From a virus (lineage: Duplodnaviria; Heunggongvirae; Uroviricota; Caudoviricetes), in IMG/VR virus record IMGVR_UViG_2695420343_000002: DNA of 46,924 bases, one strand, 5' to 3'. Of this stretch, positions 750 to 46,924 are shown in pieces. Each line of letters begins with the position of its first letter. Position 1 is the first letter of the stretch. A program made the translations under genes and the position numbers. The notes below the pieces were generated by a model. It was not told the DNA's origin. It worked only from the letters and a program-made list of their open reading frames with translations, and ran no database searches.

Positions 750-1400
750 ATGATGAACATGAGTGATCGTATTCGCCAAAGGCGAAAAGAACTGAACCTG
801 ACACAACAAGCACTGGCTGATTTGACTGGTGTGAACCGTGTCACGGTTACTGGATGGGAAAAGGACGACTACCAACCAAATGGAGCCAACCTTCAAGCCC
901 TAGCCAACGCACTTAAATGCGATCCTCTGTGGCTTGTTAGCGGAAAAGCTCGCCTGAACCAAAGATAAATCTAAAACCTGAAATATTCGCAGTTAAAAAA
1001 GTCCCCCTCATCTCGTGGTTCAGGCGGTTCATGGACAATGACGGAGCCTGGTGTCAGGAAAGAAGATGCTGAAGAGTGGGTTTATACTACCGCCCTTGTA
1101 TCAGAAATGGCATTTGCACTACGGGTCCGTGGTGATTCAATGACCAATCCCCTCGGCTCACCATCGATACCAGAAGGTTCTATCGTTATCGTAGAGCCAG
1201 ATATTATTGATACAGAGTGTATTAACGGAAAAATCGTTGTTGCCCATATCAATGGTGGGCAAGAAGCGACACTCAAAAAATTTGTTGAGGACTGGCCGAA
1301 CAGGTATCTCGTCCCACTAAATCCTAACTATAAAACTATTGAATGCGGTGAGAACTGCAGAATAGTTGGTCTTGTCAAACAAGTAATAATGGATTTTTGA
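750..1400 (+). pseudogene. CI-type prophage repressor (HTH + S24 peptidase), frame-broken copy of 40473-41126
   Basis: Track splits it into 750-968 and 1038-1400; copy B is one 217-aa ORF with the same residues. Confidence 0.55.
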
Positions 1401-1446: not shown

Positions 1447-1463
1447 ATGAGCCTATCTTTTTA

Positions 1464-1514: not shown

Positions 1515-1633
1515 TTTGTTTTTAGAGTTGTGGTGAATGCGCAGGCTGATGCGCGAAAGACATTGCAGCTATTGCGGAAAAGAGCTGTTCGGCGGGGCCA
1601 TTAAACGCCCGTATCTGGAGGTTAAAGAACAAA

Positions 1634-1909: not shown

Positions 1910-2072
1910 TTTTTTCAGGTAACTCGTCGGCATCGCAGAAACAACAACGCTCGATCATGTTGAAAGCCGATTCGTAGAACTGTTTCTGCTGAGTGTCGCT
2001 GAGACAGGAAAAGAGCGACGTTACGATGATTTTATTAATTGCATTATCAAGTTCTTTTTCATCAAAAGTCAT
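1827..2072 (-). CDS. Hypothetical protein, convergent with and overlapping the previous ORF (copy of 41553-41798)
   Basis: AAGGA 7 nt upstream of ATG; 81-aa ORF; 83-nt 3' overlap with 1634-1909 leaves one of the two in doubt. Confidence 0.45.
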   Translation of the reverse strand: MTFDEKELDNAINKIIVTSLFSCLSDTQQKQFYESAFNMIERCCFCDADELPEKIRKQLADALRVRLSDQFSEMCSPNLDK

Positions 2073-2506
2073 TTGATTTTCCTTTTATGTATACGGGCTT
2101 AAAAGGATACCACCGAGCCTGAAGTGGTGAAAAGACAGGCACATAACAGCTAAGTATTTTCAACCAGAGAGAATCCTTAGCGTTGTGGTGAATGCGGCTC
2201 AGCGCACGCGGTTAAGGTTGAGGCTGACAGTCGACCTTCTGTGGATACCCACCCGCCTGGTGTGCAACCTTCGCCAGGCACCGGAGGCACCCGGCACCAC
2301 AACTTTATGCTGTGTGTAGTCCTCGCGGTACCAGTTTGTACACTTGCTTCCGGCTGGTACCGCTCTTTTACAAAACAGAGAAGAGCATCACCGGACGACG
2401 GGCTCATAACCCAATCCATCCGGGCGGCTGCCACCGCAGGTGTTCTTCTCTGTTTTGTGGAGAAACCAACCGACCTTGCAGGGTCGATATGATGAGGAGC
2501 AGCAAA

Positions 2507-2868
2507 ATGGCTAGCGAACGCAGTACTGATGTGCAGGCATTTATCGGGAGCTGGACGGCGGCGTATTTGAAACCAAAATCGGCGCAGTTCTCAGTGAAGT
2601 CGCTTCCGGTGTGATGAACACGAAAACCAAAGGGAAGGTCTCACTCAACCTGGAAATCGAACCATTTGATGAGAACCGTGTGAAAATCAAACACAAACTC
2701 TCATATATTCGCCCGACTAACCGCGGGAAAATTTCCGAAGAAGACACCACCGAAACGCCGATGTATGTCAATCGCGGTGGTCGCCTGACTATTCTGCAGG
2801 AAGACCAGGGACAATTACTGACTCTTGCCGGTGAACCTGACGGAAAACTCCGCGCAGCAGGTCATTAA
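2507..2868 (+). pseudogene. YfdP-like early protein, frame-broken copy of 42236-42598
   Basis: Track gives 2312-2614 and 2611-2868 in different frames; copy B has one ORF; difference is atcgggag vs atcggggag. Confidence 0.45.
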
Positions 2869-2933
2869 TATCGTTTTTAATAAACTGATTATTTATCTCA
2901 TCACTGAATATTTTTATATAGTGAGGACTTATT

Positions 2934-3758
2934 ATGTCTCAGAACTTAGACGCAACCGCAATTAATCAAATCCATGCCCTTATTTCTGCTCAGGGTGTTA
3001 ATGAAATTATCAGTAAGATTGGTGCCGATGCTGTGGCATTGCCTGAGAATTTCCGCATTCATGATCTGGAAAAATTTAATTTAAATCGCTTCCGTTTCCG
3101 TGGTGCGCTTTCCACTGCCAGCATCGATGACTTTACCCGTTATTCTAAAGATCTTGCAGATGAAGGCACCCGCTGCTTTATCGATGCTGATAATATGCGT
3201 GCCGTCAGTGTGCTTAACCTGGGTACTATTGATGAACCAGGTCACGCAGATAACACCGCCACACTCAAACTGAAAAAGACAGCACCGTTCTCTGCTCTGT
3301 TGTCTGTTAACGGCGAGCGTAACTCCCAGAAATCACTGGCAGAATGGATTGAAGACTGGGCCGACTACCTTGTGGGCTTTGATGCTAATGGTGACGCCAT
3401 TCAGGCAACAAAAGCGGCTGCGGCAATCCGTAAAATCACGATTGAAGCAAACCAGACCGCTGATTTTGAAGATAATGACTTCAGCGGCAAACGCTCCCTG
3501 ATGGAATCTGTCGAAGCGAAGACCAAAGACATTATGCCAGTGGCATTTGAATTTAAATGCGTTCCGTTTGAAGGTCTGAAAGAACGTCCGTTTAAATTAC
3601 GCCTCAGCATTATCACTGGCGATCGTCCTGTACTGGTTCTGCGCATTATTCAGCTGGAAGCAGTGCAGGAAGATATGGCTAACGAATTTCGTGATCTGCT
3701 TGTTGAGAAATTCAAAGACAGCAAAGTAGAAACCTTTATTGGTACTTTCACCGCCTGA
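2934..3758 (+). CDS. YfdQ-like phage early protein (274 aa)
   Basis: Intact 274-aa ORF; length and position after a YfdP-like gene match the KplE1 yfdPQRS block as I recall it. Confidence 0.75.
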
Positions 3759-3885
3759 TTTCATTACTGCAAATGCCCCTGCGGGGGCATTTATGGAAAC
3801 GTAATTAACTCAATAATCACCGGATGGTGAGGGCTTCCTTTTACCCAAACTCAGCGCGGTGCAGCGCATATACGTGGAGAACAAA

Positions 3886-4422
3886 ATGTCATTTATTAAA
3901 ACTTTTTCCGGGAAGCATTTTTATTATGACAGGATAAATAAAGACGACATCGATATTAACGATATCGCGGTTTCTCTTTCAAATATCTGTCGCTTTGCCG
4001 GTCATCTTTCGCACTTCTACAGCGTCGCCCAACATGCGGTTCTTTGCAGCCAGCTGGTGCCGCAGGAATTTGCTTTTGAAGCGTTAATGCATGATGCAAC
4101 AGAAGCGTATTGCCAGGACATTCCCGCACCACTGAAACGCCTTCTTCCTGACTATAAACAAATGGAAGAAAAAATAGACTCCGTAATCCGTGAGAAATAC
4201 GGATTACCCCCAGTTATGAGTACGCCCGTGAAATATGCCGATCTCATCATGCTGGCAACCGAACGCCGCGATCTCGGGCTTGATGATGGCTCTTTCTGGC
4301 CTGTACTGGAAGGTATCCCGGCAACAGAGATGTTCAACGTGATTCCACTGGCACCGGGCCATGCCTACGGGATGTTTATGGAACGCTTTAACGAGTTATC
4401 GGAGTTACGCAAATGCGCATGA
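3886..4422 (+). CDS. HD-domain phosphohydrolase (YfdR-like)
   Basis: H..H and HD motifs (SVAQHAV, ALMHDATEAY); ATG at 3886 has GGAGA 6 nt upstream; track start 3859 is a GTG. Confidence 0.75.
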   Translation: MSFIKTFSGKHFYYDRINKDDIDINDIAVSLSNICRFAGHLSHFYSVAQHAVLCSQLVPQEFAFEALMHDATEAYCQDIPAPLKRLLPDYKQMEEKIDSVIREKYGLPPVMSTPVKYADLIMLATERRDLGLDDGSFWPVLEGIPATEMFNVIPLAPGHAYGMFMERFNELSELRKCA

Positions 4423-4775
4423 ATGTTTTCGAAATGGAAGGGTTTCTTCGTGGGAGATGTGTACCGCGAGATCTGAAAGTAAATGAAACAGATGCTGAAT
4501 ACCTGGTGCGTAAATTCGATGCGCTTGAAGCTAAATGTGCAGCACAGGAAAACAAAGTAATACCAGTGTCAACTGAACTGCCACCAGCAAATGAAAGTGT
4601 TTTGTTATTCGATGCTAACGGAGAAGGCTGGCTAATTGGCTGGCGTTCTCTCTGGTACACCTGGGGACAAAAAGAAACCGGAGAATGGCAGTGGACATTT
4701 CAGGTCGGGGACCTTGAAAACGTCAATATCACTCACTGGGCAGTAATGCCAAAAGCACCGGAGGCTGGAGCATAA
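4413..4775 (+). CDS. DUF551-like protein (YfdS-like)
   Basis: 120 aa; C-terminal W-rich region ending NITHWAVMPKAPE resembles the DUF551 signature. Confidence 0.65.
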   Translation: MRMNVFEMEGFLRGRCVPRDLKVNETDAEYLVRKFDALEAKCAAQENKVIPVSTELPPANESVLLFDANGEGWLIGWRSLWYTWGQKETGEWQWTFQVGDLENVNITHWAVMPKAPEAGA

Positions 4776-5353
4776 TGACCACTTTTACTGACAAAGAACT
4801 GATTAAAGAAATTAAAGAGCGTATCAGCAGCCTTGACGTGCGAGACGATATTGAGCGCCGTGCTTATGAAATTGCACTGGCATCACTGGGAGCAGAACCT
4901 GTAAGCCAAACTTACAACTTGCCAGAATTAATCGAAGGCATGGAGGTTTCCATTGATGTAAGCACTTGTGATGCGGATTTAGGTAATCGCTATTTCGGTA
5001 CCGTCACCGAGGCGTTAGAACTTGATACTGCCAAGAATGGTTACATCCTCCTGGTTCAGGACGCAGAGCCAAACTTCGATATAAATGGCAACTCTCCGGT
5101 AACTCCGGATGGTTGGGTCATGGTGCCGAAGAAACTAACCGCTGAGAACGGCGCTAAGGGTGTGCTATCCGGTGAATTTTCAGAAACTACGTTTATAAGC
5201 TGCCCGGAATGCTTTGGCGATGATGATTGCGATACCTGCGACGGGAGCGGACGTATTGAAATTAAAGTGCCAGTCACGTGGTCGACCATAAAATCTATCT
5301 GGGATAAAGGTATCGAGTATTTTGCAGCAAAACCATCACAAGAGGTGAAGTGA
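4775..5353 (+). CDS. Hypothetical protein with C-terminal zinc-finger (CPEC...CDTCDGSG)
   Basis: 192-aa ORF; start overlaps previous stop (ATGA); CxxC plus CxxCxGxG motif. Confidence 0.65.
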   Translation: MTTFTDKELIKEIKERISSLDVRDDIERRAYEIALASLGAEPVSQTYNLPELIEGMEVSIDVSTCDADLGNRYFGTVTEALELDTAKNGYILLVQDAEPNFDINGNSPVTPDGWVMVPKKLTAENGAKGVLSGEFSETTFISCPECFGDDDCDTCDGSGRIEIKVPVTWSTIKSIWDKGIEYFAAKPSQEVK

Positions 5354-5925
5354 TGAACAACTTAATGATCGACCTTGAGACGATGGGGAAAAATAAGGAT
5401 GCACCGATCGTTTCCATTGGCGCGGTGTTCTTTACCCCAGAAACCGGTGACATCGGACAAGAATTCTATGCGGTTGTCAGCCTGGACAGTGCTATGAAGC
5501 AAGGAGCTACACCTGACGGCGATACCATCCTGTGGTGGTTGAAACAGAGCCCTGAAGCACGAGCTGCAATCTGTATTGATGATACTTTATCGATCAGCGA
5601 TGCACTCTCTGAATTGAGTCATTTCATTAATCAGCATGCAGACAATATAAAATATTTAAAAGTCTGGGGTAACGGGGCCACCTTCGACAACGTAATTTTA
5701 CGTGGAGCTTACGAGCGAGCAGGACAAATCTGCCCGTGGGCGTACTGGAATGACCACGATGTACGCACGATCGTTACGCTTGGGCGTTCCATCGGATTCG
5801 ACCCCAAAATGGACATGCCTTTCGATGGCGAACGGCACAACGCCCTGGCTGATGCCCGTCATCAGGCAAAATATGTTTCCGCTATCTGGCAGAAATTAAT
5901 TCCTGCCACCAGCACAGAATTATGA
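5350..5925 (+). CDS. DEDDh-type 3'-5' exonuclease
   Basis: MIDLETMG (D-x-E) near the N-terminus and H-x4-D near the C-terminus (HNALADARHQ). Confidence 0.7.
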   Translation: MMNNLMIDLETMGKNKDAPIVSIGAVFFTPETGDIGQEFYAVVSLDSAMKQGATPDGDTILWWLKQSPEARAAICIDDTLSISDALSELSHFINQHADNIKYLKVWGNGATFDNVILRGAYERAGQICPWAYWNDHDVRTIVTLGRSIGFDPKMDMPFDGERHNALADARHQAKYVSAIWQKLIPATSTEL

Positions 5926-5961
5926 TTTTCCCGGGTGCAGCCGGTTTTGATGGAGAAAATT

Positions 5962-6243
5962 ATGAACACCTTGTTTTTACTGATGGCTGAATTCAATACC
6001 CCAAACATTGAACTCTCAGCAGTTAGCCAAAAGTACTTTGGTATGAGTCCAGCCACGGCAGAAGCAAAAGCAAACGCTTGTAAGTTGCCCGTTCCAACAT
6101 ATCGCATCGGCACATCACAAAAAGCAAAACGTTGCATCAATATTCAAGATCTTGCGGAATACATAGACAAAAGGCGAGAAGAAGGACGTATCGAGTGGGA
6201 ACAGGTCAGAACAGTCAAACAGAAGGACAAAGAACATCACTAA
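5962..6243 (+). CDS. Excisionase-like DNA-binding protein (TorI/PrtN-like)
   Basis: Small protein starting MNTLFLLMAEF; last gene before the int junction; GGAGA 7 nt upstream of ATG at 5962. Confidence 0.5.
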   Translation: MNTLFLLMAEFNTPNIELSAVSQKYFGMSPATAEAKANACKLPVPTYRIGTSQKAKRCINIQDLAEYIDKRREEGRIEWEQVRTVKQKDKEHH

Positions 6244-6273
6244 AGAAAAAACCCGCCTGAAGGCGGGTTTTCA
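6243..6273. terminator. Bidirectional rho-independent terminator
   Basis: ACCCGCC-TGAA-GGCGGGT hairpin flanked by an A-run and a T-run, between convergent genes. Confidence 0.7.
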
Positions 6274-6290
6274 AAAAGCACCAGCTATGA

Positions 6291-6464
6291 TCATGCTGCT
6301 TTGCGACGACGAAGCTTACCCTGCTGCTCTTTACCAGAGACAGTAGCGTGAGTGAACGCATTAGGAGCAGCCTTCATCAGAACTTCAACAGCAGCACCCA
6401 TACCTGCGAATGCTTTCATTGTGTCGAACTTAACCTGTGGCTTGGTTGCTTTTTGATCTTTCAT
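6291..6464 (-). CDS. Small basic protein, 57 aa, hypothetical (below track cutoff)
   Basis: Translated by hand: MKDQKATKPQVKFDTMKAFAGMGAAVEVLMKAAPNAFTHATVSGKEQQGKLRRRKAA; GGGAG 8 nt upstream of ATG. Confidence 0.5.
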   Translation of the reverse strand: MKDQKATKPQVKFDTMKAFAGMGAAVEVLMKAAPNAFTHATVSGKEQQGKLRRRKAA

Positions 6465-6535
6465 AGAAAACTCCCGAGACAGTAAAGGCGTCTCTAACCC
6501 TTTCTTTAAAGCTAGCTTGTTTCGCTAACTTATGC

Positions 6536-6556
6536 CAATCGATCATGTCGATTGGT
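6536..6556. promoter_or_regulatory. Palindrome CCAATCGA-N5-TCGATTGG upstream of the small ORF
   Basis: Perfect 8-bp inverted arms, 5-bp spacer, about 70 bp upstream of the 6464 start codon. Confidence 0.4.
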
Positions 6557-6660
6557 GACATCGTTTCTTAGTAGTTTAAGCACAAAACGACTGCCATAGA
6601 TGTACCTTTAAGGTAATCTGGACGGGTATCCTACAATTTGTAGACCCTTCTCGTCTATAC

Positions 6661-7197
6661 CTACTGAGCAAATTTAAGAAAGATATCCTGCAGCTCATCA
6701 ATGACTGCCGACATCACATAACCGCACTGTTCCATGCGGAAACCAAAAGACTCGTAATACTGCACCAGTTCTGGTACTGGCTCTACAATGTGGACAACTT
6801 TACATTCAACAGCTTTACAAAATATAAAAGCACTCATAAGAGTGAGTAAAACCATGCGCCCTTTCAATGGGTGAGATTCATCTTCTCTAGAAAACCTTTC
6901 GATCATATGGATACGAAAGATGTTTTCTTCAACCCCATAAACACAAATTGCTGCTCCTGATGGTATTCCCTGAACCCGACCTTGCTGAACAAGTTTTATG
7001 CAGAACTCATACTTTTCTCTGGAGTTGCCATAGGTACTTAACGCATAGTCCCATTCAAGCTCACCATAGCCACCACACAGAATCTTGTAATCATCATCAC
7101 TGAGCGGACCAACAGCAAGAGGTAAGCCGACATGATCAATAATCAACTGGATATTGTTACGTACTGATTGACCTATCTCGTCCAGGGTAAGCATCAT
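6661..7197 (-). CDS. Putative GNAT-fold N-acetyltransferase (accessory gene)
   Basis: 178-aa ORF; C-terminal YYESFGF resembles the GNAT motif; looks AT-rich by eye; no search run. Confidence 0.5.
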   Translation of the reverse strand: MMLTLDEIGQSVRNNIQLIIDHVGLPLAVGPLSDDDYKILCGGYGELEWDYALSTYGNSREKYEFCIKLVQQGRVQGIPSGAAICVYGVEENIFRIHMIERFSREDESHPLKGRMVLLTLMSAFIFCKAVECKVVHIVEPVPELVQYYESFGFRMEQCGYVMSAVIDELQDIFLKFAQ

Positions 7198-7533: not shown

Positions 7534-8631
7534 ATGGCGTACTATAACATAGAGAAACGACTAAAATCCGATGGCACACCACGCTATCGCTGTAATGTGA
7601 TTATCAAAGAAAAAGGTGTTATCACTTACAGGGAAAGCAAAACATTCCCTAAACATGCTCATGCCAAAACATGGGGCACACAGAAAGTGATGGAATTAGA
7701 TCTATATGGCATTCCATCATCAAATGCAGTTGACGGACTTACAGTCCGTGACTTACTACACAAATATTTAAATGACCCAAATGCCGGAGGTAAAGCAGGC
7801 CGTACTAAAAGATATGTGCTGGAACTGCTTATGGATAGTGACATCTCCGCGATCAAACTATCTGAACTGACAGAAAATGACGTAATTGAACATTGCAGGC
7901 TAAGAAACAACGCTGGTGCAGGTCCTGCAACAGTCAGCCACGATGTTAGTTATCTTGGCAGTGTTCTGGATGCGGCCAAACCTGTATACGGAATTAATTA
8001 CACATCAAACCCGGCGAAAAGCGCTCGCCCATATCTACTTAAACTTGGTTTGATTGGTAAATCAAACCGTCGTAATCGTAGACCAGCATCTGATGAACTG
8101 GACATGCTCATTGCAGGCCTTCAACAACGATCTACTCATAAATGCTCAAAAATTCCGTTCGTTGATATCCTCAAATTTTCTGTATGGTCCTGTATGCGAA
8201 TCGGAGAAGTATGCCGGTTACGATGGGAAGATCTCGACCAGGAACAAAAATCTATACTCGTAAGAGACAGGAAAGATCCACGCAAAAAGGAAGGTAACCA
8301 CATGAAAGTAGCCTTGCTTGGGGAAGCCTGGGATATCGTCCAACGACAGCCCCAAAAATCGGAATTCATTTTTCCATATAACAGCACTTCTGTTACTGCG
8401 GGATTTCAGAGAGTAAGAAGCAAATTAGGTATTAAGGATCTGCGATACCATGATTTGCGTAGAGAAGGGGCAAGTCGCTTATTTGAGGCTGGTTTTAGTA
8501 TTGAGGAAGTCGCCCAAGTTACAGGGCATCGTTCATTAAACGTGCTATGGCAGGTATATACCGAACTGTATCCGAAATCTTTACATAATCGTTTTGAAGA
8601 GCTCCAAAGGAGCAGAAATAAGACCTCTTGA
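7534..8631 (+). CDS. int: Tyrosine-type phage integrase
   Basis: 365 aa; RYHDLRREGAS box and GHRS...VLWQVYTELY tyrosine region; ACGAGG upstream of ATG. Confidence 0.9.
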   Translation: MAYYNIEKRLKSDGTPRYRCNVIIKEKGVITYRESKTFPKHAHAKTWGTQKVMELDLYGIPSSNAVDGLTVRDLLHKYLNDPNAGGKAGRTKRYVLELLMDSDISAIKLSELTENDVIEHCRLRNNAGAGPATVSHDVSYLGSVLDAAKPVYGINYTSNPAKSARPYLLKLGLIGKSNRRNRRPASDELDMLIAGLQQRSTHKCSKIPFVDILKFSVWSCMRIGEVCRLRWEDLDQEQKSILVRDRKDPRKKEGNHMKVALLGEAWDIVQRQPQKSEFIFPYNSTSVTAGFQRVRSKLGIKDLRYHDLRREGASRLFEAGFSIEEVAQVTGHRSLNVLWQVYTELYPKSLHNRFEELQRSRNKTS

Positions 8632-8660
8632 CACTGTTTATCCATACAGTTAAAAATAAT

Positions 8661-8679
8661 GCTGTATACAAACACAGTA
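8661..8679. promoter_or_regulatory. LexA (SOS) box
   Basis: gCTGTatacaaacACAGta matches the CTGT-N8-ACAG consensus, 14 bp upstream of the dinI-like start. Confidence 0.7.
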
Positions 8680-33361: not shown

Positions 33362-33440
33362 TTAGCCCCCTCTTAATTGCTGTTGGTCCTCTCAGATATG
33401 AGGGGAAGGGATCTTAATGACAGTCTGTTTATTATTTCAG

Positions 33441-36409: not shown

Positions 36410-36428
36410 ACTTCGTTTCTCCTCTTAA

Positions 36429-36818
36429 TCAGGCGGCTGCACCCGCCGGTTTCTCGTACTTACTGATAGTGATCTCGACCTTCCCTTCCGGGATAACCGG
36501 TCCCCACTCCACCAGCATTCTTTTCACCTGACTGTCGTCTTCCCACACACCCGCGTGGGTCAGGGCGTCAAACAGCGCCTTGTTATAGTTGTCCAGATCG
36601 CGGATCCGGTTATCCGGAGGAAACAACACGATCTCCACTGAAGCAGGTGCCGACGTTGGTTTTGGCAGACGACGTAACTGCTCAACTATTGCTGCACACG
36701 CCGCGCTCTGGAATTTGCGCCCCGCCGCGCTTATCAGGCTCTTACCAGCAAACGCCCCTTTGTTGGGGTGTCGCCAGTACGTGTTCACGCTGGGCGGGAA
36801 AGGCAGGATCAGCTTCAT
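36429..36818 (-). CDS. rusA: Holliday-junction resolvase RusA
   Basis: 129 aa; RDLDNYNKALFDALTHAGVWEDDSQV matches the RusA catalytic core of E. coli RusA. Confidence 0.8.
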   Translation of the reverse strand: MKLILPFPPSVNTYWRHPNKGAFAGKSLISAAGRKFQSAACAAIVEQLRRLPKPTSAPASVEIVLFPPDNRIRDLDNYNKALFDALTHAGVWEDDSQVKRMLVEWGPVIPEGKVEITISKYEKPAGAAA

Positions 36819-37141
36819 ACTTTCAGGCCTCTCTCATGTAACCAGTGAGTTGCACGCAGCCTTGCGTTTTCCTCACCGGCAAGCAGTGAGCGGATAATTC
36901 CGACCACCTCGCTGTCGTCGTCCTTCATCGCGGTATGAATCTTTATCCCCCGGGCCACGCCACGCTTTATCGTGATGACGCCTTTTTTCTCCAGTGCGCG
37001 AAGATGTTCTACCGCAGCATTCACTGAACGGTATCCCAGCATGGTTGCCACCTCCTGATTGGTTGGCGGGAAGCCACGTTCTTTCTGGTAAGAAATCAGC
37101 ATATCCAGCACCTGCTGCTGGCATTGAGTTAATGTCGTCAT
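36815..37141 (-). CDS. LexA DNA-binding-domain-only protein (no S24 peptidase domain)
   Basis: 108 aa aligning to LexA residues about 1-75 (LTQCQQQVLDML...GFPPTNQEVATMLGYRSVNAAVEHLRALEKKGVI...ARGI); no Ala-Gly cleavage site or Ser/Lys protease domain. Confidence 0.7.
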   Translation of the reverse strand: MTTLTQCQQQVLDMLISYQKERGFPPTNQEVATMLGYRSVNAAVEHLRALEKKGVITIKRGVARGIKIHTAMKDDDSEVVGIIRSLLAGEENARLRATHWLHERGLKV

Positions 37142-37791
37142 GCCGCCATCTCCCTGACCAGTTTTTCTGCCTGCTGGCGAACCTGCGCCAGAAAGGCCTC
37201 ACCACATGCCTCAAGTTCATCGCGCCCGATGTAGCTGATTGCCGGTCCCTTCCAGGTCTTGTCGAAAACAGCAATAGCACCAGCGAAGAAAGCGCCTGTC
37301 GGCACCTGCTTCTCATCCTTCGGGATAAACCAGGCAGGCAGTTCAAAACCAATACGCCCGCGAATAAAAGCAATATGATCTGCATCTTCCGGCCACCACA
37401 CTTCGCTGGTGGCAGCTTTGATCAGGAAAACATAGCGCCCGCCTTTATCACGCATGGCACTGGCATGCTTCATGATGTAACGCATGCCGGTGATGTATTG
37501 CCCCTCATGCTGACTGGCGCGGCTGTATGGGGGATTACCAAAGGCAGCACCTTTAAGCTCCGCAAGGCGTTCTGACCAGTCATGCGCCAGCGCGTTGTCT
37601 TCCGCCGTGTAATACGCAGCACATTTGGCGTTATCACCGTCAGTGAACAGATCCAGAACAAACGGGCCAAACAGGGTGTTAATTCCCCAGAAAATGTTGT
37701 CCGGCGTGCGCCACTGATCGCCCACTTCCTTCAGTTCATGGGCTGGTTTGTTCCGCAGTTCCGCCAGCGCCTGGCAATATTTATTACTCAT
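37138..37791 (-). CDS. DNA N6-adenine methyltransferase (phage Dam-like)
   Basis: FGNPPYS catalytic motif; likely start MSNKYCQ at 37791 overlapping the upstream stop (track ORF extends to 37824). Confidence 0.75.
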   Translation of the reverse strand: MSNKYCQALAELRNKPAHELKEVGDQWRTPDNIFWGINTLFGPFVLDLFTDGDNAKCAAYYTAEDNALAHDWSERLAELKGAAFGNPPYSRASQHEGQYITGMRYIMKHASAMRDKGGRYVFLIKAATSEVWWPEDADHIAFIRGRIGFELPAWFIPKDEKQVPTGAFFAGAIAVFDKTWKGPAISYIGRDELEACGEAFLAQVRQQAEKLVREMAA

Positions 37792-38285
37792 TAAGCCCCC
37801 ACGTAATTCCCTGAGAGATACCACTCTTCACCTGATGCAGCCCGCTTACTGCTTTTCCGTAAACACCGTTCACGACGCGCCAGAAAATTGTTTCGTTCTG
37901 GCTGGGAGTGGCTTTCACGGAATGCCGCCATCCACACCGTTGCAGCACGACGGTATAAGCCCCTCGACTCCAGTTCTTCAGCCTGGCGGGTCAGGCACAA
38001 AATCACCCGGGGGTCGTTAGTGCCGACATAGAACTTGCGCACAGGTCTGGTTTCACGAACTGGTTGTGGTTCCGGCTCCTGCGCTCTCTCAGTCAGGCGC
38101 GAGAAATGTCTGCGTGTATCTCCTTCACAACGGTGAGCCACACGCCCACTCTGACGTAACTTGCTTGCTGACTGCAGAACGCGCTGCCGTGAGTAACCTG
38201 CAAAAGCATCCGCAATGTCTCCGGAAGTACACCCCGGATGGGCTTCAATGAATTTCTGAACTTCATTCAAAAGACTCATGATCAC
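37791..38285 (-). CDS. Hypothetical protein, possibly PerC/YfdN-like
   Basis: 164 aa; LYRRAATVWMAAF region; position between the initiator and Dam as in KplE1. Confidence 0.4.
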   Translation of the reverse strand: MIMSLLNEVQKFIEAHPGCTSGDIADAFAGYSRQRVLQSASKLRQSGRVAHRCEGDTRRHFSRLTERAQEPEPQPVRETRPVRKFYVGTNDPRVILCLTRQAEELESRGLYRRAATVWMAAFRESHSQPERNNFLARRERCLRKSSKRAASGEEWYLSGNYVGA

Positions 38286-39571: not shown

Positions 39572-40152
39572 GCGTTAGTTTCTCCACAACCAGAAGCAAT
39601 CGACGCCACGACGCCCGGAGCTGCACACTCGCGGGCGTTACTCTTTTCCGGCGCACAAAAAACACGAAATAACAGTGTTAAATGCTCCTGCCACTTCGCC
39701 ATTACTTGGTAGCTGTTCTCTTCGATTTGCTCACGCTCAGCTTGGTCAATAACTCCATCAGCAGTTGCCTTGCGTAAGTACTGGGAATGCTTGCCAATCC
39801 ATTCTATTGACTCCATCAGCCGCTGATTAATGTCACCATTGTCAATGTCATCAATGACCACCAGCGGCACAAACACCCCATTACTACGACGGGCTATTGC
39901 ATCTGTTACATGCCTGGTACCACTGGCATCCTGTAAAACCATGGCCCACTCAAGTGGAAAAATTTGATCCCCACCGCTACGCAGTCTGTTATGCAATTGA
40001 TCTTTTGCTGGGGTGATATCATCAGATTTATACAAACCAAGAATTTCTGCTGCTTCCTCATAGCCATGAGGTAAATCAGCAATCGTTCTTCGTATTGCTG
40101 CCACCAGCCATGCTGGTTGTTTATCAACTTTCCATTCAGGTTCTTTACCCAC
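39568..40152 (-). CDS. CII-like / YdaT-family early regulatory protein (putative)
   Basis: 194 aa directly downstream of the cro-like gene in the rightward early operon; call is by position and family recollection. Confidence 0.45.
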
Positions 40153-40179
40153 GGTTAATTCCTCATTTCTGTGGTGTTT

Positions 40180-40377
40180 TTATGCCGCAGCACTGTTAGT
40201 CTTTTGATATAAAGACACGTCAACTTTCAGTTTCCCGTTAGTAATTTTTTCTAACTGGTACGCTCGGCCTTCAGGAATAATCTCAGGCCACTCTGAAACA
40301 GACGGATGCTTAATACCTAGGGCTTCGGCGGTTTTACAAACTCCGCCGAAATAATTAATCACGTCGGATTTCCGCAT
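40180..40377 (-). CDS. Cro-like HTH protein (YdaS family)
   Basis: 65 aa; GGVCKTAEALGIKHPSVSEW pattern; divergent from cI across an operator-rich spacer. Confidence 0.75.
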   Translation of the reverse strand: MRKSDVINYFGGVCKTAEALGIKHPSVSEWPEIIPEGRAYQLEKITNGKLKVDVSLYQKTNSAAA

Positions 40378-40404
40378 TTCTGTCTCCCGTTAAATTACGT
40401 TAAG

Positions 40405-40475
40405 CAGAAATGTAGGATATCCAACATACCAATGTCAAGAATCCTACATGGGCATGTGGTAGGATTGCCTACATG
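40405..40475. promoter_or_regulatory. Operator cluster between the cro-like gene and cI
   Basis: TGTAGGATATCCAACA at 40411-40426; inverted AATCCTACA/TGTGGTAGGATT at 40439-40465; GTAGGATTGCCTACA abutting the cI start. Confidence 0.5.
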
Positions 40476-41126
40476 ATGAACATGAGTGATCGTATTCGCC
40501 AAAGGCGAAAAGAACTGAACCTGACACAACAAGCACTGGCTGATTTGACTGGTGTGAACCGTGTCACGGTTACTGGATGGGAAAAGGACGACTACCAACC
40601 AAATGGAGCCAACCTTCAAGCCCTAGCCAACGCACTTAAATGCGATCCTCTGTGGCTTGTTAGCGGAAAAGGCTCGCCTGAACCAAAGATAAATCTAAAA
40701 CCTGAAATATTCGCAGTTAAAAAAGTCCCCCTCATCTCGTGGGTTCAGGCGGGTTCATGGACAATGACGGAGCCTGGTGTCAGGAAAGAAGATGCTGAAG
40801 AGTGGGTTTATACTACCGCCCTTGTATCAGAAATGGCATTTGCACTACGGGTCCGTGGTGATTCAATGACCAATCCCCTCGGCTCACCATCGATACCAGA
40901 AGGTTCTATCGTTATCGTAGAGCCAGATATTATTGATACAGAGTGTATTAACGGAAAAATCGTTGTTGCCCATATCAATGGTGGGCAAGAAGCGACACTC
41001 AAAAAATTTGTTGAGGACTGGCCGAACAGGTATCTCGTCCCACTAAATCCTAACTATAAAACTATTGAATGCGGTGAGAACTGCAGAATAGTTGGTCTTG
41101 TCAAACAAGTAATAATGGATTTTTGA
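40473..41126 (+). CDS. cI: CI-type prophage repressor (HTH_XRE + S24 LexA-like peptidase)
   Basis: 217 aa; LTQQALADLTGVNRVTVTGWE HTH; VRGDSMTNPLG Ser motif and K in LKKF for autocleavage. Confidence 0.9.
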   Translation: MMNMSDRIRQRRKELNLTQQALADLTGVNRVTVTGWEKDDYQPNGANLQALANALKCDPLWLVSGKGSPEPKINLKPEIFAVKKVPLISWVQAGSWTMTEPGVRKEDAEEWVYTTALVSEMAFALRVRGDSMTNPLGSPSIPEGSIVIVEPDIIDTECINGKIVVAHINGGQEATLKKFVEDWPNRYLVPLNPNYKTIECGENCRIVGLVKQVIMDF

Positions 41127-41150
41127 CACATCTTCCTCACTATCGCAAAA

Positions 41151-41172
41151 CCGGGGTATCCCCGGTTTTTTT
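41151..41172 (+). terminator. Rho-independent terminator after cI
   Basis: CCGGGGTATCCCCGG hairpin followed by T7. Confidence 0.75.
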
Positions 41173-41189
41173 ATGAGCCTATCTTTTTA

Positions 41190-41240
41190 TGTAGGATAAC
41201 CAACATAAACTCTTGACACTCACATGTTGGATATCCTACA
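41190..41240. promoter_or_regulatory. Second operator pair downstream of cI, flanking a TTGACA hexamer
   Basis: TGTAGGATAACCAACA at 41190-41205 and TGTTGGATATCCTACA at 41225-41240, inverted relative to each other. Confidence 0.5.
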
Positions 41241-41359
41241 TTTGTTTTTAGAGTTGTGGTGAATGCGCAGGCTGATGCGCGAAAGACATTGCAGCTATTG
41301 CGGAAAAGAGCTGTTCGGCGGGGCCATTAAACGCCCGTATCTGGAGGTTAAAGAACAAA

Positions 41360-41635
41360 ATGAAAGTCCAGATTTTAAACAATAGTGGTGAAGTCGTTTG
41401 GTCATACGACATAGCCGCTCCTGTAGATCAGAGCGGCGATAGCTGGACCAATGGGAAACATCAGATTATGGCTGGAGTTGTATTCTCTTTACGCCGTGCT
41501 TTGGAACAGGCTGAAGTATTTCCATCAGACCCTGAATGGAAATGGCCTTTTTCTATTTGTCCAAATTCGGAGAGCACATTTCAGAAAATTGGTCAGAAAG
41601 TCGCACTCGAAGAGCATCAGCCAACTGTTTCCTGA
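41360..41635 (+). CDS. Hypothetical protein downstream of cI (exclusion-gene position)
   Basis: GGAGG RBS; 91 aa; no motif recognised. Confidence 0.5.
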   Translation: MKVQILNNSGEVVWSYDIAAPVDQSGDSWTNGKHQIMAGVVFSLRRALEQAEVFPSDPEWKWPFSICPNSESTFQKIGQKVALEEHQPTVS

Positions 41636-41798
41636 TTTTTTCAGGTAACTCGTCGGCATCGCAGAAACAACAACGCTCGATCATGTTGAAAGCCGATTCG
41701 TAGAACTGTTTCTGCTGAGTGTCGCTGAGACAGGAAAAGAGCGACGTTACGATGATTTTATTAATTGCATTATCAAGTTCTTTTTCATCAAAAGTCAT
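41553..41798 (-). CDS. Hypothetical protein, convergent with and overlapping the previous ORF
   Basis: AAGGA RBS; 81 aa; overlaps the neighbour by 83 nt. Confidence 0.45.
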   Translation of the reverse strand: MTFDEKELDNAINKIIVTSLFSCLSDTQQKQFYESAFNMIERCCFCDADELPEKIRKQLADALRVRLSDQFSEMCSPNLDK

Positions 41799-42235
41799 TT
41801 GATTTTCCTTTTATGTATACGGGCTTAAAAGGATACCACCGAGCCTGAAGTGGTGAAAAGACAGGCACATAACAGCTAAGTATTTTCAACCAGAGAGAAT
41901 CCTTAGCGTTGTGGTGAATGCGGCTCAGCGCACGCGGGTTAAGGTTGAGGCTGACAGTCGACCTTCTGTGGATACCCACCCGCCTGGTGTGCAACCTTCG
42001 CCAGGCACCGGGAGGCACCCGGCACCACAACTTTATGCTGTGTGTAGTCCTCGCGGTACCAGTTTGTACACTTGCTTCCGGCTGGTACCGCTCTTTTTAC
42101 AAAACAGAGAAGAGCATCACCGGACGACGGGCTCATAACCCAATCCATCCGGGCGGCTGCCACCGCAGGTGTTCTTCTCTGTTTTGTGGAGAAACCAACC
42201 GACCTTGCAGGGTCGATATGATGAGGAGCAGCAAA

Positions 42236-42598
42236 ATGGCTAGCGAACGCAGTACTGATGTGCAGGCATTTATCGGGGAGCTGGACGGCGGCGTATTTGA
42301 AACCAAAATCGGCGCAGTTCTCAGTGAAGTCGCTTCCGGTGTGATGAACACGAAAACCAAAGGGAAGGTCTCACTCAACCTGGAAATCGAACCATTTGAT
42401 GAGAACCGTGTGAAAATCAAACACAAACTCTCATATATTCGCCCGACTAACCGCGGGAAAATTTCCGAAGAAGACACCACCGAAACGCCGATGTATGTCA
42501 ATCGCGGTGGTCGCCTGACTATTCTGCAGGAAGACCAGGGACAATTACTGACTCTTGCCGGTGAACCTGACGGAAAACTCCGCGCAGCAGGTCATTAA
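42236..42598 (+). CDS. YfdP-like early protein (120 aa)
   Basis: GAGGAG 8 nt upstream of ATG at 42236; the longer track ORF from 41918 is a read-through of the leader. Confidence 0.6.
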   Translation: MASERSTDVQAFIGELDGGVFETKIGAVLSEVASGVMNTKTKGKVSLNLEIEPFDENRVKIKHKLSYIRPTNRGKISEEDTTETPMYVNRGGRLTILQEDQGQLLTLAGEPDGKLRAAGH

Positions 42599-42663
42599 TA
42601 TCGTTTTTAATAAACTGATTATTTATCTCATCACTGAATATTTTTATATAGTGAGGACTTATT

Positions 42664-43488
42664 ATGTCTCAGAACTTAGACGCAACCGCAATTAATCAAA
42701 TCCATGCCCTTATTTCTGCTCAGGGTGTTAATGAAATTATCAGTAAGATTGGTGCCGATGCTGTGGCATTGCCTGAGAATTTCCGCATTCATGATCTGGA
42801 AAAATTTAATTTAAATCGCTTCCGTTTCCGTGGTGCGCTTTCCACTGCCAGCATCGATGACTTTACCCGTTATTCTAAAGATCTTGCAGATGAAGGCACC
42901 CGCTGCTTTATCGATGCTGATAATATGCGTGCCGTCAGTGTGCTTAACCTGGGTACTATTGATGAACCAGGTCACGCAGATAACACCGCCACACTCAAAC
43001 TGAAAAAGACAGCACCGTTCTCTGCTCTGTTGTCTGTTAACGGCGAGCGTAACTCCCAGAAATCACTGGCAGAATGGATTGAAGACTGGGCCGACTACCT
43101 TGTGGGCTTTGATGCTAATGGTGACGCCATTCAGGCAACAAAAGCGGCTGCGGCAATCCGTAAAATCACGATTGAAGCAAACCAGACCGCTGATTTTGAA
43201 GATAATGACTTCAGCGGCAAACGCTCCCTGATGGAATCTGTCGAAGCGAAGACCAAAGACATTATGCCAGTGGCATTTGAATTTAAATGCGTTCCGTTTG
43301 AAGGTCTGAAAGAACGTCCGTTTAAATTACGCCTCAGCATTATCACTGGCGATCGTCCTGTACTGGTTCTGCGCATTATTCAGCTGGAAGCAGTGCAGGA
43401 AGATATGGCTAACGAATTTCGTGATCTGCTTGTTGAGAAATTCAAAGACAGCAAAGTAGAAACCTTTATTGGTACTTTCACCGCCTGA
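42664..43488 (+). CDS. YfdQ-like phage early protein (274 aa)
   Basis: Identical translation to 2934-3758. Confidence 0.75.
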
Positions 43489-43615
43489 TTTCATTACTGC
43501 AAATGCCCCTGCGGGGGCATTTATGGAAACGTAATTAACTCAATAATCACCGGATGGTGAGGGCTTCCTTTTACCCAAACTCAGCGCGGTGCAGCGCATA
43601 TACGTGGAGAACAAA

Positions 43616-44152
43616 ATGTCATTTATTAAAACTTTTTCCGGGAAGCATTTTTATTATGACAGGATAAATAAAGACGACATCGATATTAACGATATCGCGG
43701 TTTCTCTTTCAAATATCTGTCGCTTTGCCGGTCATCTTTCGCACTTCTACAGCGTCGCCCAACATGCGGTTCTTTGCAGCCAGCTGGTGCCGCAGGAATT
43801 TGCTTTTGAAGCGTTAATGCATGATGCAACAGAAGCGTATTGCCAGGACATTCCCGCACCACTGAAACGCCTTCTTCCTGACTATAAACAAATGGAAGAA
43901 AAAATAGACTCCGTAATCCGTGAGAAATACGGATTACCCCCAGTTATGAGTACGCCCGTGAAATATGCCGATCTCATCATGCTGGCAACCGAACGCCGCG
44001 ATCTCGGGCTTGATGATGGCTCTTTCTGGCCTGTACTGGAAGGTATCCCGGCAACAGAGATGTTCAACGTGATTCCACTGGCACCGGGCCATGCCTACGG
44101 GATGTTTATGGAACGCTTTAACGAGTTATCGGAGTTACGCAAATGCGCATGA
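43616..44152 (+). CDS. HD-domain phosphohydrolase (YfdR-like)
   Basis: Identical to 3886-4422; H..H and HD motifs. Confidence 0.75.
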   Translation: MSFIKTFSGKHFYYDRINKDDIDINDIAVSLSNICRFAGHLSHFYSVAQHAVLCSQLVPQEFAFEALMHDATEAYCQDIPAPLKRLLPDYKQMEEKIDSVIREKYGLPPVMSTPVKYADLIMLATERRDLGLDDGSFWPVLEGIPATEMFNVIPLAPGHAYGMFMERFNELSELRKCA

Positions 44153-44505
44153 ATGTTTTCGAAATGGAAGGGTTTCTTCGTGGGAGATGTGTACCGCGAG
44201 ATCTGAAAGTAAATGAAACAGATGCTGAATACCTGGTGCGTAAATTCGATGCGCTTGAAGCTAAATGTGCAGCACAGGAAAACAAAGTAATACCAGTGTC
44301 AACTGAACTGCCACCAGCAAATGAAAGTGTTTTGTTATTCGATGCTAACGGAGAAGGCTGGCTAATTGGCTGGCGTTCTCTCTGGTACACCTGGGGACAA
44401 AAAGAAACCGGAGAATGGCAGTGGACATTTCAGGTCGGGGACCTTGAAAACGTCAATATCACTCACTGGGCAGTAATGCCAAAAGCACCGGAGGCTGGAG
44501 CATAA
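44143..44505 (+). CDS. DUF551-like protein (YfdS-like)
   Basis: Identical to 4413-4775. Confidence 0.65.
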   Translation: MRMNVFEMEGFLRGRCVPRDLKVNETDAEYLVRKFDALEAKCAAQENKVIPVSTELPPANESVLLFDANGEGWLIGWRSLWYTWGQKETGEWQWTFQVGDLENVNITHWAVMPKAPEAGA

Positions 44506-45083
44506 TGACCACTTTTACTGACAAAGAACTGATTAAAGAAATTAAAGAGCGTATCAGCAGCCTTGACGTGCGAGACGATATTGAGCGCCGTGCTTATGAA
44601 ATTGCACTGGCATCACTGGGAGCAGAACCTGTAAGCCAAACTTACAACTTGCCAGAATTAATCGAAGGCATGGAGGTTTCCATTGATGTAAGCACTTGTG
44701 ATGCGGATTTAGGTAATCGCTATTTCGGTACCGTCACCGAGGCGTTAGAACTTGATACTGCCAAGAATGGTTACATCCTCCTGGTTCAGGACGCAGAGCC
44801 AAACTTCGATATAAATGGCAACTCTCCGGTAACTCCGGATGGTTGGGTCATGGTGCCGAAGAAACTAACCGCTGAGAACGGCGCTAAGGGTGTGCTATCC
44901 GGTGAATTTTCAGAAACTACGTTTATAAGCTGCCCGGAATGCTTTGGCGATGATGATTGCGATACCTGCGACGGGAGCGGACGTATTGAAATTAAAGTGC
45001 CAGTCACGTGGTCGACCATAAAATCTATCTGGGATAAAGGTATCGAGTATTTTGCAGCAAAACCATCACAAGAGGTGAAGTGA
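44505..45083 (+). CDS. Hypothetical protein with C-terminal zinc-finger (CPEC...CDTCDGSG)
   Basis: Identical to 4775-5353. Confidence 0.65.
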   Translation: MTTFTDKELIKEIKERISSLDVRDDIERRAYEIALASLGAEPVSQTYNLPELIEGMEVSIDVSTCDADLGNRYFGTVTEALELDTAKNGYILLVQDAEPNFDINGNSPVTPDGWVMVPKKLTAENGAKGVLSGEFSETTFISCPECFGDDDCDTCDGSGRIEIKVPVTWSTIKSIWDKGIEYFAAKPSQEVK

Positions 45084-45655
45084 TGAACAACTTAATGATC
45101 GACCTTGAGACGATGGGGAAAAATAAGGATGCACCGATCGTTTCCATTGGCGCGGTGTTCTTTACCCCAGAAACCGGTGACATCGGACAAGAATTCTATG
45201 CGGTTGTCAGCCTGGACAGTGCTATGAAGCAAGGAGCTACACCTGACGGCGATACCATCCTGTGGTGGTTGAAACAGAGCCCTGAAGCACGAGCTGCAAT
45301 CTGTATTGATGATACTTTATCGATCAGCGATGCACTCTCTGAATTGAGTCATTTCATTAATCAGCATGCAGACAATATAAAATATTTAAAAGTCTGGGGT
45401 AACGGGGCCACCTTCGACAACGTAATTTTACGTGGAGCTTACGAGCGAGCAGGACAAATCTGCCCGTGGGCGTACTGGAATGACCACGATGTACGCACGA
45501 TCGTTACGCTTGGGCGTTCCATCGGATTCGACCCCAAAATGGACATGCCTTTCGATGGCGAACGGCACAACGCCCTGGCTGATGCCCGTCATCAGGCAAA
45601 ATATGTTTCCGCTATCTGGCAGAAATTAATTCCTGCCACCAGCACAGAATTATGA
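45080..45655 (+). CDS. DEDDh-type 3'-5' exonuclease
   Basis: Identical to 5350-5925. Confidence 0.7.
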   Translation: MMNNLMIDLETMGKNKDAPIVSIGAVFFTPETGDIGQEFYAVVSLDSAMKQGATPDGDTILWWLKQSPEARAAICIDDTLSISDALSELSHFINQHADNIKYLKVWGNGATFDNVILRGAYERAGQICPWAYWNDHDVRTIVTLGRSIGFDPKMDMPFDGERHNALADARHQAKYVSAIWQKLIPATSTEL

Positions 45656-45691
45656 TTTTCCCGGGTGCAGCCGGTTTTGATGGAGAAAATT

Positions 45692-45973
45692 ATGAACACC
45701 TTGTTTTTACTGATGGCTGAATTCAATACCCCAAACATTGAACTCTCAGCAGTTAGCCAAAAGTACTTTGGTATGAGTCCAGCCACGGCAGAAGCAAAAG
45801 CAAACGCTTGTAAGTTGCCCGTTCCAACATATCGCATCGGCACATCACAAAAAGCAAAACGTTGCATCAATATTCAAGATCTTGCGGAATACATAGACAA
45901 AAGGCGAGAAGAAGGACGTATCGAGTGGGAACAGGTCAGAACAGTCAAACAGAAGGACAAAGAACATCACTAA
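45692..45973 (+). CDS. Excisionase-like DNA-binding protein (TorI/PrtN-like)
   Basis: Identical to 5962-6243. Confidence 0.5.
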   Translation: MNTLFLLMAEFNTPNIELSAVSQKYFGMSPATAEAKANACKLPVPTYRIGTSQKAKRCINIQDLAEYIDKRREEGRIEWEQVRTVKQKDKEHH

Positions 45974-46003
45974 AGAAAAAACCCGCCTGAAGGCGGGTTT
46001 TCA
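45973..46003. terminator. Bidirectional rho-independent terminator
   Basis: Same hairpin as 6243-6273. Confidence 0.7.
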
Positions 46004-46020
46004 AAAAGCACCAGCTATGA

Positions 46021-46194
46021 TCATGCTGCTTTGCGACGACGAAGCTTACCCTGCTGCTCTTTACCAGAGACAGTAGCGTGAGTGAACGCATTAGGAGCAG
46101 CCTTCATCAGAACTTCAACAGCAGCACCCATACCTGCGAATGCTTTCATTGTGTCGAACTTAACCTGTGGCTTGGTTGCTTTTTGATCTTTCAT
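46021..46194 (-). CDS. Small basic protein, 57 aa, hypothetical
   Basis: Copy of 6291-6464. Confidence 0.5.
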   Translation of the reverse strand: MKDQKATKPQVKFDTMKAFAGMGAAVEVLMKAAPNAFTHATVSGKEQQGKLRRRKAA

Positions 46195-46264
46195 AGAAAA
46201 CTCCCGAGACAGTAAAGGCGTCTCTAACCCTTTCTTTAAAGCTAGCTTGTTTCGCTAACTTATG

Positions 46265-46285
46265 CCAATCGATCATGTCGATTGG
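46265..46285. promoter_or_regulatory. Palindrome CCAATCGA-N5-TCGATTGG
   Basis: Copy of 6536-6556. Confidence 0.4.
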
Positions 46286-46390
46286 TGACATCGTTTCTTA
46301 GTAGTTTAAGCACAAAACGACTGCCATAGATGTACCTTTAAGGTAATCTGGACGGGTATCCTACAATTTGTAGACCCTTCTCGTCTATAC

Positions 46391-46924
46391 CTACTGAGCA
46401 AATTTAAGAAAGATATCCTGCAGCTCATCAATGACTGCCGACATCACATAACCGCACTGTTCCATGCGGAAACCAAAAGACTCGTAATACTGCACCAGTT
46501 CTGGTACTGGCTCTACAATGTGGACAACTTTACATTCAACAGCTTTACAAAATATAAAAGCACTCATAAGAGTGAGTAAAACCATGCGCCCTTTCAATGG
46601 GTGAGATTCATCTTCTCTAGAAAACCTTTCGATCATATGGATACGAAAGATGTTTTCTTCAACCCCATAAACACAAATTGCTGCTCCTGATGGTATTCCC
46701 TGAACCCGACCTTGCTGAACAAGTTTTATGCAGAACTCATACTTTTCTCTGGAGTTGCCATAGGTACTTAACGCATAGTCCCATTCAAGCTCACCATAGC
46801 CACCACACAGAATCTTGTAATCATCATCACTGAGCGGACCAACAGCAAGAGGTAAGCCGACATGATCAATAATCAACTGGATATTGTTACGTACTGATTG
46901 ACCTATCTCGTCCAGGGTAAGCAT
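46391..46924 (-). CDS. Putative GNAT-fold N-acetyltransferase, 5' end cut by the window edge
   Basis: Copy of 6661-7197 lacking only the first codon. Confidence 0.5.
   Translation of the reverse strand: MLTLDEIGQSVRNNIQLIIDHVGLPLAVGPLSDDDYKILCGGYGELEWDYALSTYGNSREKYEFCIKLVQQGRVQGIPSGAAICVYGVEENIFRIHMIERFSREDESHPLKGRMVLLTLMSAFIFCKAVECKVVHIVEPVPELVQYYESFGFRMEQCGYVMSAVIDELQDIFLKFAQ

Follow-up and report, generated by a model that had tools for sequence, protein, structure and literature searches.

SOS induction governs the induction of prophages, the release of Shiga toxin, mutagenesis and persistence under antibiotics. The subject of this work is a gene of a temperate Escherichia coli phage that encodes a 108-amino-acid (aa) protein, here called mini-LexA, on a stretch of 46,924 nucleotides of caudoviral DNA (virus record IMGVR_UViG_2695420343_000002; the whole stretch is referred to as the window). 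The described entities closest to it are the cleavage fragment of E. coli LexA, gp6 of the Bacillus thuringiensis tectivirus GIL01, the lexA(Ind-) proteins, and the small phage proteins DinI and GIL01 gp7-type LexA modulator. The free LexA N-terminal domain (NTD) keeps SOS-box binding and repression until ClpXP destroys the fragment, completing induction (PMC10584840); accordingly, a stable, dimerising phage NTD should behave as a repressor of SOS genes proof against activated RecA (RecA*). The LexA fragment of residues 1–84 has the same winged-helix fold as mini-LexA, at 48% identity, shares S39, N41, A42, E45 and the wing with it, and equally has no S24 or dimerisation domain. The fragment is, however, short-lived and removed by ClpXP through its ...VAA end exposed by LexA cleavage, whereas mini-LexA is encoded and selected as such, carries the replacement E44V and a 40-aa tail, and ends in ...GLKV.

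GIL01 gp6 is likewise a phage-encoded LexA DNA-binding domain without protease. Its promoter is LexA-repressed, as the SOS-box operon of mini-LexA relatives, judged from its sequence, would also be. Unlike mini-LexA, gp6 has only 66 aa, no tail and a Gram-positive LexA origin; its helix VSHKTAHRYLMQL, in which K38 is essential, has diverged from that of Gram-positive LexA (represented by a provisional B. subtilis sequence). No BLASTP alignment between gp6 and mini-LexA was obtained at E ≤ 100, and their identity in a multiple alignment of the common LexA fold was 33%. The tectivirus has neither a CI repressor nor Q, whereas the phage of the window has both. For the lexA(Ind-) alleles S119A and G85D (PDB 1jhh, 1jhf) the predicted outcome is the same as for mini-LexA, namely an SOS-box repressor beyond inactivation by RecA*, but these proteins are full-length dimers with point mutations, while mini-LexA is devoid of the whole catalytic domain and would have to obtain dimerisation from elsewhere. 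DinI and gp7 also blunt SOS signalling, the former acting on RecA filaments and the latter on the LexA protein, whereas mini-LexA would act on DNA directly; DinI is co-encoded with mini-LexA in the window, and in relatives within the same gene string.

The reading preferred here, at a probability of roughly 45%, is that mini-LexA binds SOS boxes, is insensitive to RecA and so would damp or reset the SOS response. This reading, with its link to DinI, is partly supported, and the comparative support is real: in distant relatives the gene stands in strings of genes headed by an SOS box and containing DinI and/or RecA. Neither this SOS box-DinI/RecA-mini-LexA operon nor the function of mini-LexA appears to be described in the literature searched, and the putative operon is the main new result.

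The preliminary description of this stretch, made without database searches, had recognised in the 108-aa product LexA's N-terminal DNA-binding domain without the protease domain, and this identification was borne out. Residues 1–65 matched Pfam PF01726 (LexA_DNA_bind) over its full length (model positions 1–65 of 65, E = 2.8e-19), with a score of 69.1 bits at a gathering threshold of 23.7. The first PDB match obtained with phmmer was 1lea, the N-terminal domain of E. coli LexA (E = 4e-16), aligned free of gaps to residues 2–70. The AlphaFold model (predicted local distance difference test score, pLDDT, 82) showed the helix-helix-helix-strand-strand topology of the LexA winged helix-turn-helix (wHTH), with helices at residues 6–22, 28–35 and 40–52 and strands at 56–58 and 66–68; with Foldseek it was superposed on DNA-bound LexA 3jso_B with a root-mean-square deviation (rmsd) of 1.0 Å over 68 columns at 48% identity. 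The NCBIfam lexA equivalog TIGR00498 was matched only at model positions 1–91 of 203 and scored 72.6 bits, where the cut-off is 110.95. No Pfam match to Peptidase_S24, the domain bearing the Ser119/Lys156 dyad, was found in mini-LexA, which ends at residue 108 and is directly followed by the gene for the RusA resolvase. Since the S24 domain is missing and the score stays below the family cut-off, mini-LexA is, strictly speaking, no LexA repressor; on its profile matches it is placed outside the LexA repressor proper and in Pfam LexA_DNA_bind and PHROG 362. The latter profile aligned along its whole length (positions 1–106 of 106) with residues 1–108 (E = 2.2e-58), its family name "transcriptional repressor" being an annotation and not an experimentally derived function. 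The best explanation of the protein is descent from a gammaproteobacterial LexA that is now without its S24 protease/dimerisation domain and has a helical hairpin in its place.

In E. coli LexA the bases are contacted by S39, N41, A42, E44 and E45 of helix 3 (PMC3091678). As to the conservation of DNA-contact residues, which the preliminary description had left as a check, four of the five (S39, N41, A42 and E45) are kept in mini-LexA, and E44 is replaced by V. Also retained are H46, L47 and the wing residues R64-G65-I66. Family-wide, S39 is invariant and N41 nearly so, and A42 varies in a few members.

It had further been stated that the product stops before the Ala-Gly cleavage site. This was right as to the absence of S24, but a conserved tail, predicted as two helices, follows the wing, and A88 (followed by G89) is tentatively aligned at the site. 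The tail (residues ~70–108, ~40 aa) is conserved even in relatives with 41–49% overall identity and is specific to the family, both LexA and gp6 being devoid of it. In a fold search with the model, no solved-structure match covered residues ~70–108, and the weak full-length matches of mini-LexA, to BlaI/MarR/MntR-type wHTH regulators with rmsd > 5 Å, were uninformative. The tail is proposed as the dimerisation element of mini-LexA. In the HMMER alignment, L87-A88 of mini-LexA, with G89 next, stands opposite A83-A84 of LexA, with G85 next, but the posterior probability is low; the "AG" of mini-LexA at this position is not kept in other subfamilies, and the region is predicted to be helical. L87-A88-G89 may be a vestige of the LexA hinge/cleavage site.

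Such a vestige would be in keeping with mini-LexA being a decayed LexA- or CI-type remnant, whether pseudogene or frameshift product, or a chance open reading frame (ORF), a view to which hardly any credence is given here. Mini-LexA is bordered without a gap by complete genes, RusA at its stop codon and Dam at its start, the length is constant at 104–108 aa across thousands of genomes, the tail is kept at 41–49% identity, and the phage has a separate, intact S24 repressor of CI type. The ratio of non-synonymous to synonymous substitution rates (dN/dS), calculated from 45 distinct E. coli-type alleles, was 0.06 for the whole gene, with values of 0.02 for the wHTH and 0.16 for the tail; mini-LexA is therefore a working gene under strong purifying selection. 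A broken full-length repressor was considered and rejected, since the genes for RusA and Dam overlap its two ends at ATGA and an S24 signal is absent. A frameshifted S24 domain, which the preliminary description had named as the finding that would undo the stand-alone interpretation, is excluded because both ATGA junctions and the complete RusA gene filling the downstream DNA leave no room for it. The coordinates of the features of the window are collected in Table 1.

Table 1. Features of the mini-LexA gene and of related loci in the window.
Feature	Position	Strand	Evidence or remark
Mini-LexA ORF	36815..37141	(-)	ATG start, 108 aa, MTTLTQCQQQVLDML...HERGLKV
Winged helix-turn-helix, residues 1–68	36938..37141	(-)	HMMER to 1lea, model, Foldseek to 3jso
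Recognition helix, residues 39-SVNAAVEHLRAL-50	within mini-LexA		LexA counterpart SPNAAEEHLKAL
Two-helix tail, residues 75–88 and 93–102	36836..36919	(-)	Model helices, block pLDDT 87–89
RusA resolvase, 129 aa	36429..36818	(-)	Pfam RusA, residues 6–118, E = 6e-15
Dam methyltransferase	37138..37824	(-)	Pfam Dam, E = 1e-45; stop overlaps mini-LexA start (ATGA)
PR-like promoter TTGACA-18-TACATT	40409..40438	(-)	Promoter scan
CI-type cleavable repressor	40473..41126	(+)	Peptidase_S24 E = 4e-25, HTH_3 E = 1e-15
dinI promoter TTGACA-18-AAAAAT (8628–8657) with two SOS boxes	8628..8677	(+)	Promoter scan
SOS box CTGTTTATCCATACAG	8634–8649		In dinI promoter spacer; perfect CTGT-N8-ACAG
SOS box CTGTATACAAACACAG	8662–8677		At dinI start site; perfect CTGT-N8-ACAG
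DinI-like gene, 82 aa	8693..8941	(+)	Pfam DinI, E = 1.1e-19; adjoins integrase
Weak SOS-like site CTGTTTATTATTTCAG	33425–33440		Between small late ORF and holin gene

For the comparison of loci, viral contigs were fetched for three distant mini-LexA subfamilies; a related-locus search by family alignment had returned near-identical E. coli loci only, and single distant members were used instead. In the subfamily of Klebsiella-type phages (P0138), 28 of the 34 viral loci place mini-LexA in a same-strand string headed by an SOS box, in the order SOS box, RecA and/or DinI, small ORF, mini-LexA, 67-aa ORF and DUF968. The box is near-consensus (for example TACTGTTTATTTATACAGTA), overlaps a TTGAnC-type promoter and lies 37 nt before the first start codon; by chance such a box is expected about 0.14 times per 10 kb. 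The Pfam matches of the string were strong for both RecA (E = 3e-130, three loci) and DinI (E = 8e-25). These loci belong to four lineages that share less than 70% identity with each other, and the same SOS box-DinI/RecA-small ORF-mini-LexA string is present in Klebsiella phage Kp4865-4 (OK490419.1). The presence of DinI, a modulator of RecA filaments, and of mini-LexA in one putatively SOS-controlled string fits an SOS-damping module.

In three of the loci (L198 4598–5683; also L189 and L197) a full-length phage RecA gene follows two SOS boxes and immediately precedes the small ORF and mini-LexA. Mini-LexA is flanked in the SOS-box operon by two small conserved ORFs (L180 5697–5954 and 6384–6587; L173 5713–5961), of 82–85 aa and 67 aa, neither of which matches a Pfam family; the 82–85-aa ORF is invariably found between DinI/RecA and mini-LexA.

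In the window itself the SOS boxes and mini-LexA are far apart. The preliminary description had coupled mini-LexA with a dinI-like SOS gene and had cited a box at 8661–8679. The gene was confirmed by its Pfam match, its product being 98.8% identical to mEp460 DinI, and the box, which lies ahead of it, is real but is one of two. The search of the window for CTGT-N8-ACAG that had been suggested at the same time was run, and the two boxes of the dinI promoter were the only perfect sites found (0.65 expected by chance in the whole window). One lies 28 bp upstream of the other, and the dinI-like gene thus has tandem LexA operators, which are candidate in-genome targets of mini-LexA.

The preferred mechanism, RecA-insensitive binding of SOS boxes, may be set out as follows. 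By its retained contact residues mini-LexA would recognise CTGT-type half-sites, that is, SOS boxes, and its tail hairpin would supply dimerisation. DNA damage would be unable to inactivate it, because the domain that responds to RecA* is absent. Because the protein would be made from the early rightward (PR) operon, it should appear only after induction or infection, at a time when host LexA is being or has been destroyed. Mini-LexA could then re-occupy SOS operators, the phage's own two-box dinI promoter included, and the host SOS programme would be damped or reset during phage development, presumably to the physiological benefit of the phage. In the lineages with an SOS box ahead of the string, mini-LexA could feed back on its own promoter.

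Several points weigh against this mechanism. The free LexA NTD is by itself a weak DNA binder, and dimerisation through the tail is only inferred. E44 is replaced in all family members (by V, A, F, T or L), and E45 is usually retained but is L in the commonest SOS-operon lineage; the specificity of mini-LexA may therefore have shifted from that of LexA. In the window the gene appears to be an early-operon gene silent in the lysogen, with no SOS box within 6 kb. No box enrichment was found within 6 kb of mini-LexA in the mEp390-type subfamily (80 loci), where boxes occurred at 0.15 per 10 kb, as expected by chance. A DinI-like protein is also encoded in at least 29 of the 54 phage records carrying mini-LexA, which speaks for the mechanism, but co-occurrence counts of this kind are inflated by near-identical phages and by the host range common to DinI and mini-LexA. 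Finally, host LexA would fully explain boxes beside phage genes, which point to SOS regulation of the gene and not to binding by its product.

According to the strongest alternative, mini-LexA is a phage-specific regulator of the gp6 kind: its wHTH would have drifted to a non-SOS phage operator and, by activating or repressing phage genes, would time middle or late functions, host LexA setting only the time of its synthesis. This main rival is seriously entertained, though the odds are against it. Gp6, the sole characterised phage mini-LexA, is made from a LexA-repressed promoter, binds the non-SOS palindrome GaCACA-nn-TGTGaC at −43.5 and activates a late promoter. The Klebsiella-type operon follows a like plan, with an SOS-box promoter and then mini-LexA, and the loss of E44 throughout the family and of E45 in one lineage would suit a changed operator. 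On the other hand, late genes are already served by a Q antiterminator (in the window, Pfam Antiterm, E = 1.5e-53), gp6 has no tail and no BLASTP similarity to mini-LexA, and the recognition helix of mini-LexA is much nearer to that of its host LexA than the gp6 helix is to that of Gram-positive LexA, with the reservation on the B. subtilis sequence given above. An unbiased palindrome enumeration in eight representative loci ranked ACTGT-N8-ACAGT first (in five of the eight), which speaks for the preferred mechanism, and returned no recurrent non-SOS operator candidate near mini-LexA, which is weak negative evidence against the rival.

Two further sites bear on late-gene regulation of this kind. 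A weak SOS-like site heads the lysis genes of the window (Table 1); it overlaps a promoter-like −10 (TCAACA-17-AATAAT with TG) and lies downstream of a PR'-like promoter and terminator (33741–33720). Since CTG-N10-CAG occurs 25 times in the window, the site may be due to chance, and a link to mini-LexA is speculative. In relatives, a good box (TACTGTAAAAATAAACAGTG) stands at the 5′ terminus of a methylase gene in the late region, where it forms codons 3–8 of a DNA methyltransferase gene of ~350 codons (L004 10765–10780; also L174, L175, L176 and L201); it lies 3.4–5 kb downstream of mini-LexA and recurs across subfamilies. A near-perfect SOS box (TACTGTTTTTACATACAGTA) was also observed inside the CI-type repressor gene (230 aa) of 28 loci (L008 1548–1563), an odd location for an operator.

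SOS boxes were also found in E. coli-type loci, again in favour of the preferred mechanism. In 14 of 80 such loci a good box, TACTGTATTTATGAACAGTG, separates rusA from the KilA-N gene that lies two genes downstream of mini-LexA, and this suggests that the KilA-N or antirepressor-like gene is under LexA control there. In these loci (L004 6767–6782 and 13 others) the box is part of an insert of ~100 nt; the corresponding rusA/KilA-N junction of the window (36410–36428) has 19 nt and no box.

The neighbourhood of mini-LexA is broadly conserved and consists of a Dam or C5 methylase gene, mini-LexA, RusA, sometimes KilA-N or Rha, DUF968 and Q. The prevalence of DNA-metabolism genes around mini-LexA across subfamilies (Dam/C5 methylase upstream, RusA and DUF968/HNH downstream) could mean that the protein is a DNA- or protein-binding accessory outside SOS and transcription, aiding for instance Dam, RusA or replication, with its LexA ancestry a structural legacy. 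A weak PHROG match to O-like replication initiators (E = 0.004) and the mEp390-type subfamily, which has no SOS-box association, are in line with this. Gene order in the lambdoid nin region is, however, mosaic and no evidence of common function; recruitment to SOS-box/DinI/RecA strings in four lineages points to SOS, and the strongest constraint is on the base-contact residues, within the domain that has a dN/dS of 0.02. An accessory role of this sort is considered improbable.

The operon of the window has the order cro, CII-like, O-like, PerC-like, Dam, mini-LexA, RusA, KilA-N, DUF968 and Q, followed by the lysis genes. No promoter-like site was found by the promoter scan between the PR-like promoter and mini-LexA, and the PR-like promoter is the likely source of the operon transcript, mini-LexA included; by the same reasoning mini-LexA would be produced during lytic growth only. 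The start of the complete RusA gene overlaps the mini-LexA stop (ATGA, 36815–36818), and the overlaps joining Dam, mini-LexA and RusA imply translational coupling, as far as can be read from the junctions. The CI-type repressor gene is intact and distinct from mini-LexA. A PerC-family ORF of 164 aa (37791–38285) shares 34 nt with the Dam ORF as annotated from its GTG start. Because RefSeq relatives of Dam begin 33 nt further downstream (654 nt), the downstream start is probably the true one.

As to the window as a whole, it holds ~1.18 copies of one phage genome of ~39.73 kb, positions 1–7194 repeating 39714–46924. The two copies differ by 17 single-base deletions alone, all within 52–2546, and the repeat looks like an overlap between the two ends of an assembly, circular or concatemeric, whose start is of low quality. 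Two different tandem prophages, a possibility raised by an exact repeat of 4.65 kb, were rejected, as 1–7194 equals 39714–46924 apart from those deletions. The 120-aa S24 ORF at 1038..1400 is an error-broken copy of the cI gene.

The gene is widely distributed: of 5426 complete E. coli genomes, 2233 have it, in as many as four copies per genome, and it is carried by phages that include SfV, SfII, SfIV, cdtI, mEp460, Ayreon, Stx2a_1447 and Stx2c and Stx2k phages. An exhaustive HMMER search added further full-length relatives of 106–135 aa with 41–51% identity, together with many other short proteins consisting of the LexA NTD only. Many database proteins (P0129, P0131, P0139, P0140 and P0153 among them) have two LexA_DNA_bind domains in tandem without S24, and could represent LexA wHTH dimers linked covalently ("single-chain dimers"). 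In E. coli SOI121 (L001, NZ_AP035757.1) the prophage bearing the module ends at a fragment of a tRNA-dihydrouridine synthase gene, with zur, yjbJ and dinF some kb away; dinF is in an operon with lexA, and the proximity is probably coincidental.

The records name the gene product "LexA family transcriptional regulator", "LexA DNA binding domain protein" or "SOS-response repressor and protease LexA", the last of which is wrong because there is no protease domain. A survey of Shiga toxin (Stx) phages lists the gene merely as "pham 237" with pfam01726 (PMC8136144). No functional study of the mini-LexA family came up in the full-text searches aimed at one, which yielded only GIL01 gp6 and annotation-level mentions. 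Common as it is, and with a LexA-family regulator annotation in the records, the gene is less novel than the preliminary description implied.

A wider and more tentative proposal, for which the chances are put well below even, is that these proteins form a RecA-proof "surrogate LexA" family, present in the prophages of ~40% of E. coli genomes and in Klebsiella phages, which together with DinI and sometimes RecA would constitute an SOS-damping module. Cleavage of host LexA would switch the module on, mini-LexA would then re-close the SOS operators, and in some lineages the module would be autoregulated through its own SOS box. If this is true, an uncleavable phage LexA DNA-binding module would represent an unrecognised layer of SOS control. 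The SOS response would be shortened or capped, the induction of the prophage and of co-resident prophages and the output of Shiga toxin would be affected, and there would be knock-on effects on mutagenesis and antibiotic tolerance. The gene is carried by medically important phages, namely Stx2a/Stx2c, cdtI and the Shigella serotype-converting SfII, SfIV and SfV. If the DNA specificity is instead new, mini-LexA would still be an uncharacterised regulator, and the "LexA" label that it bears in thousands of genomes would be misleading.

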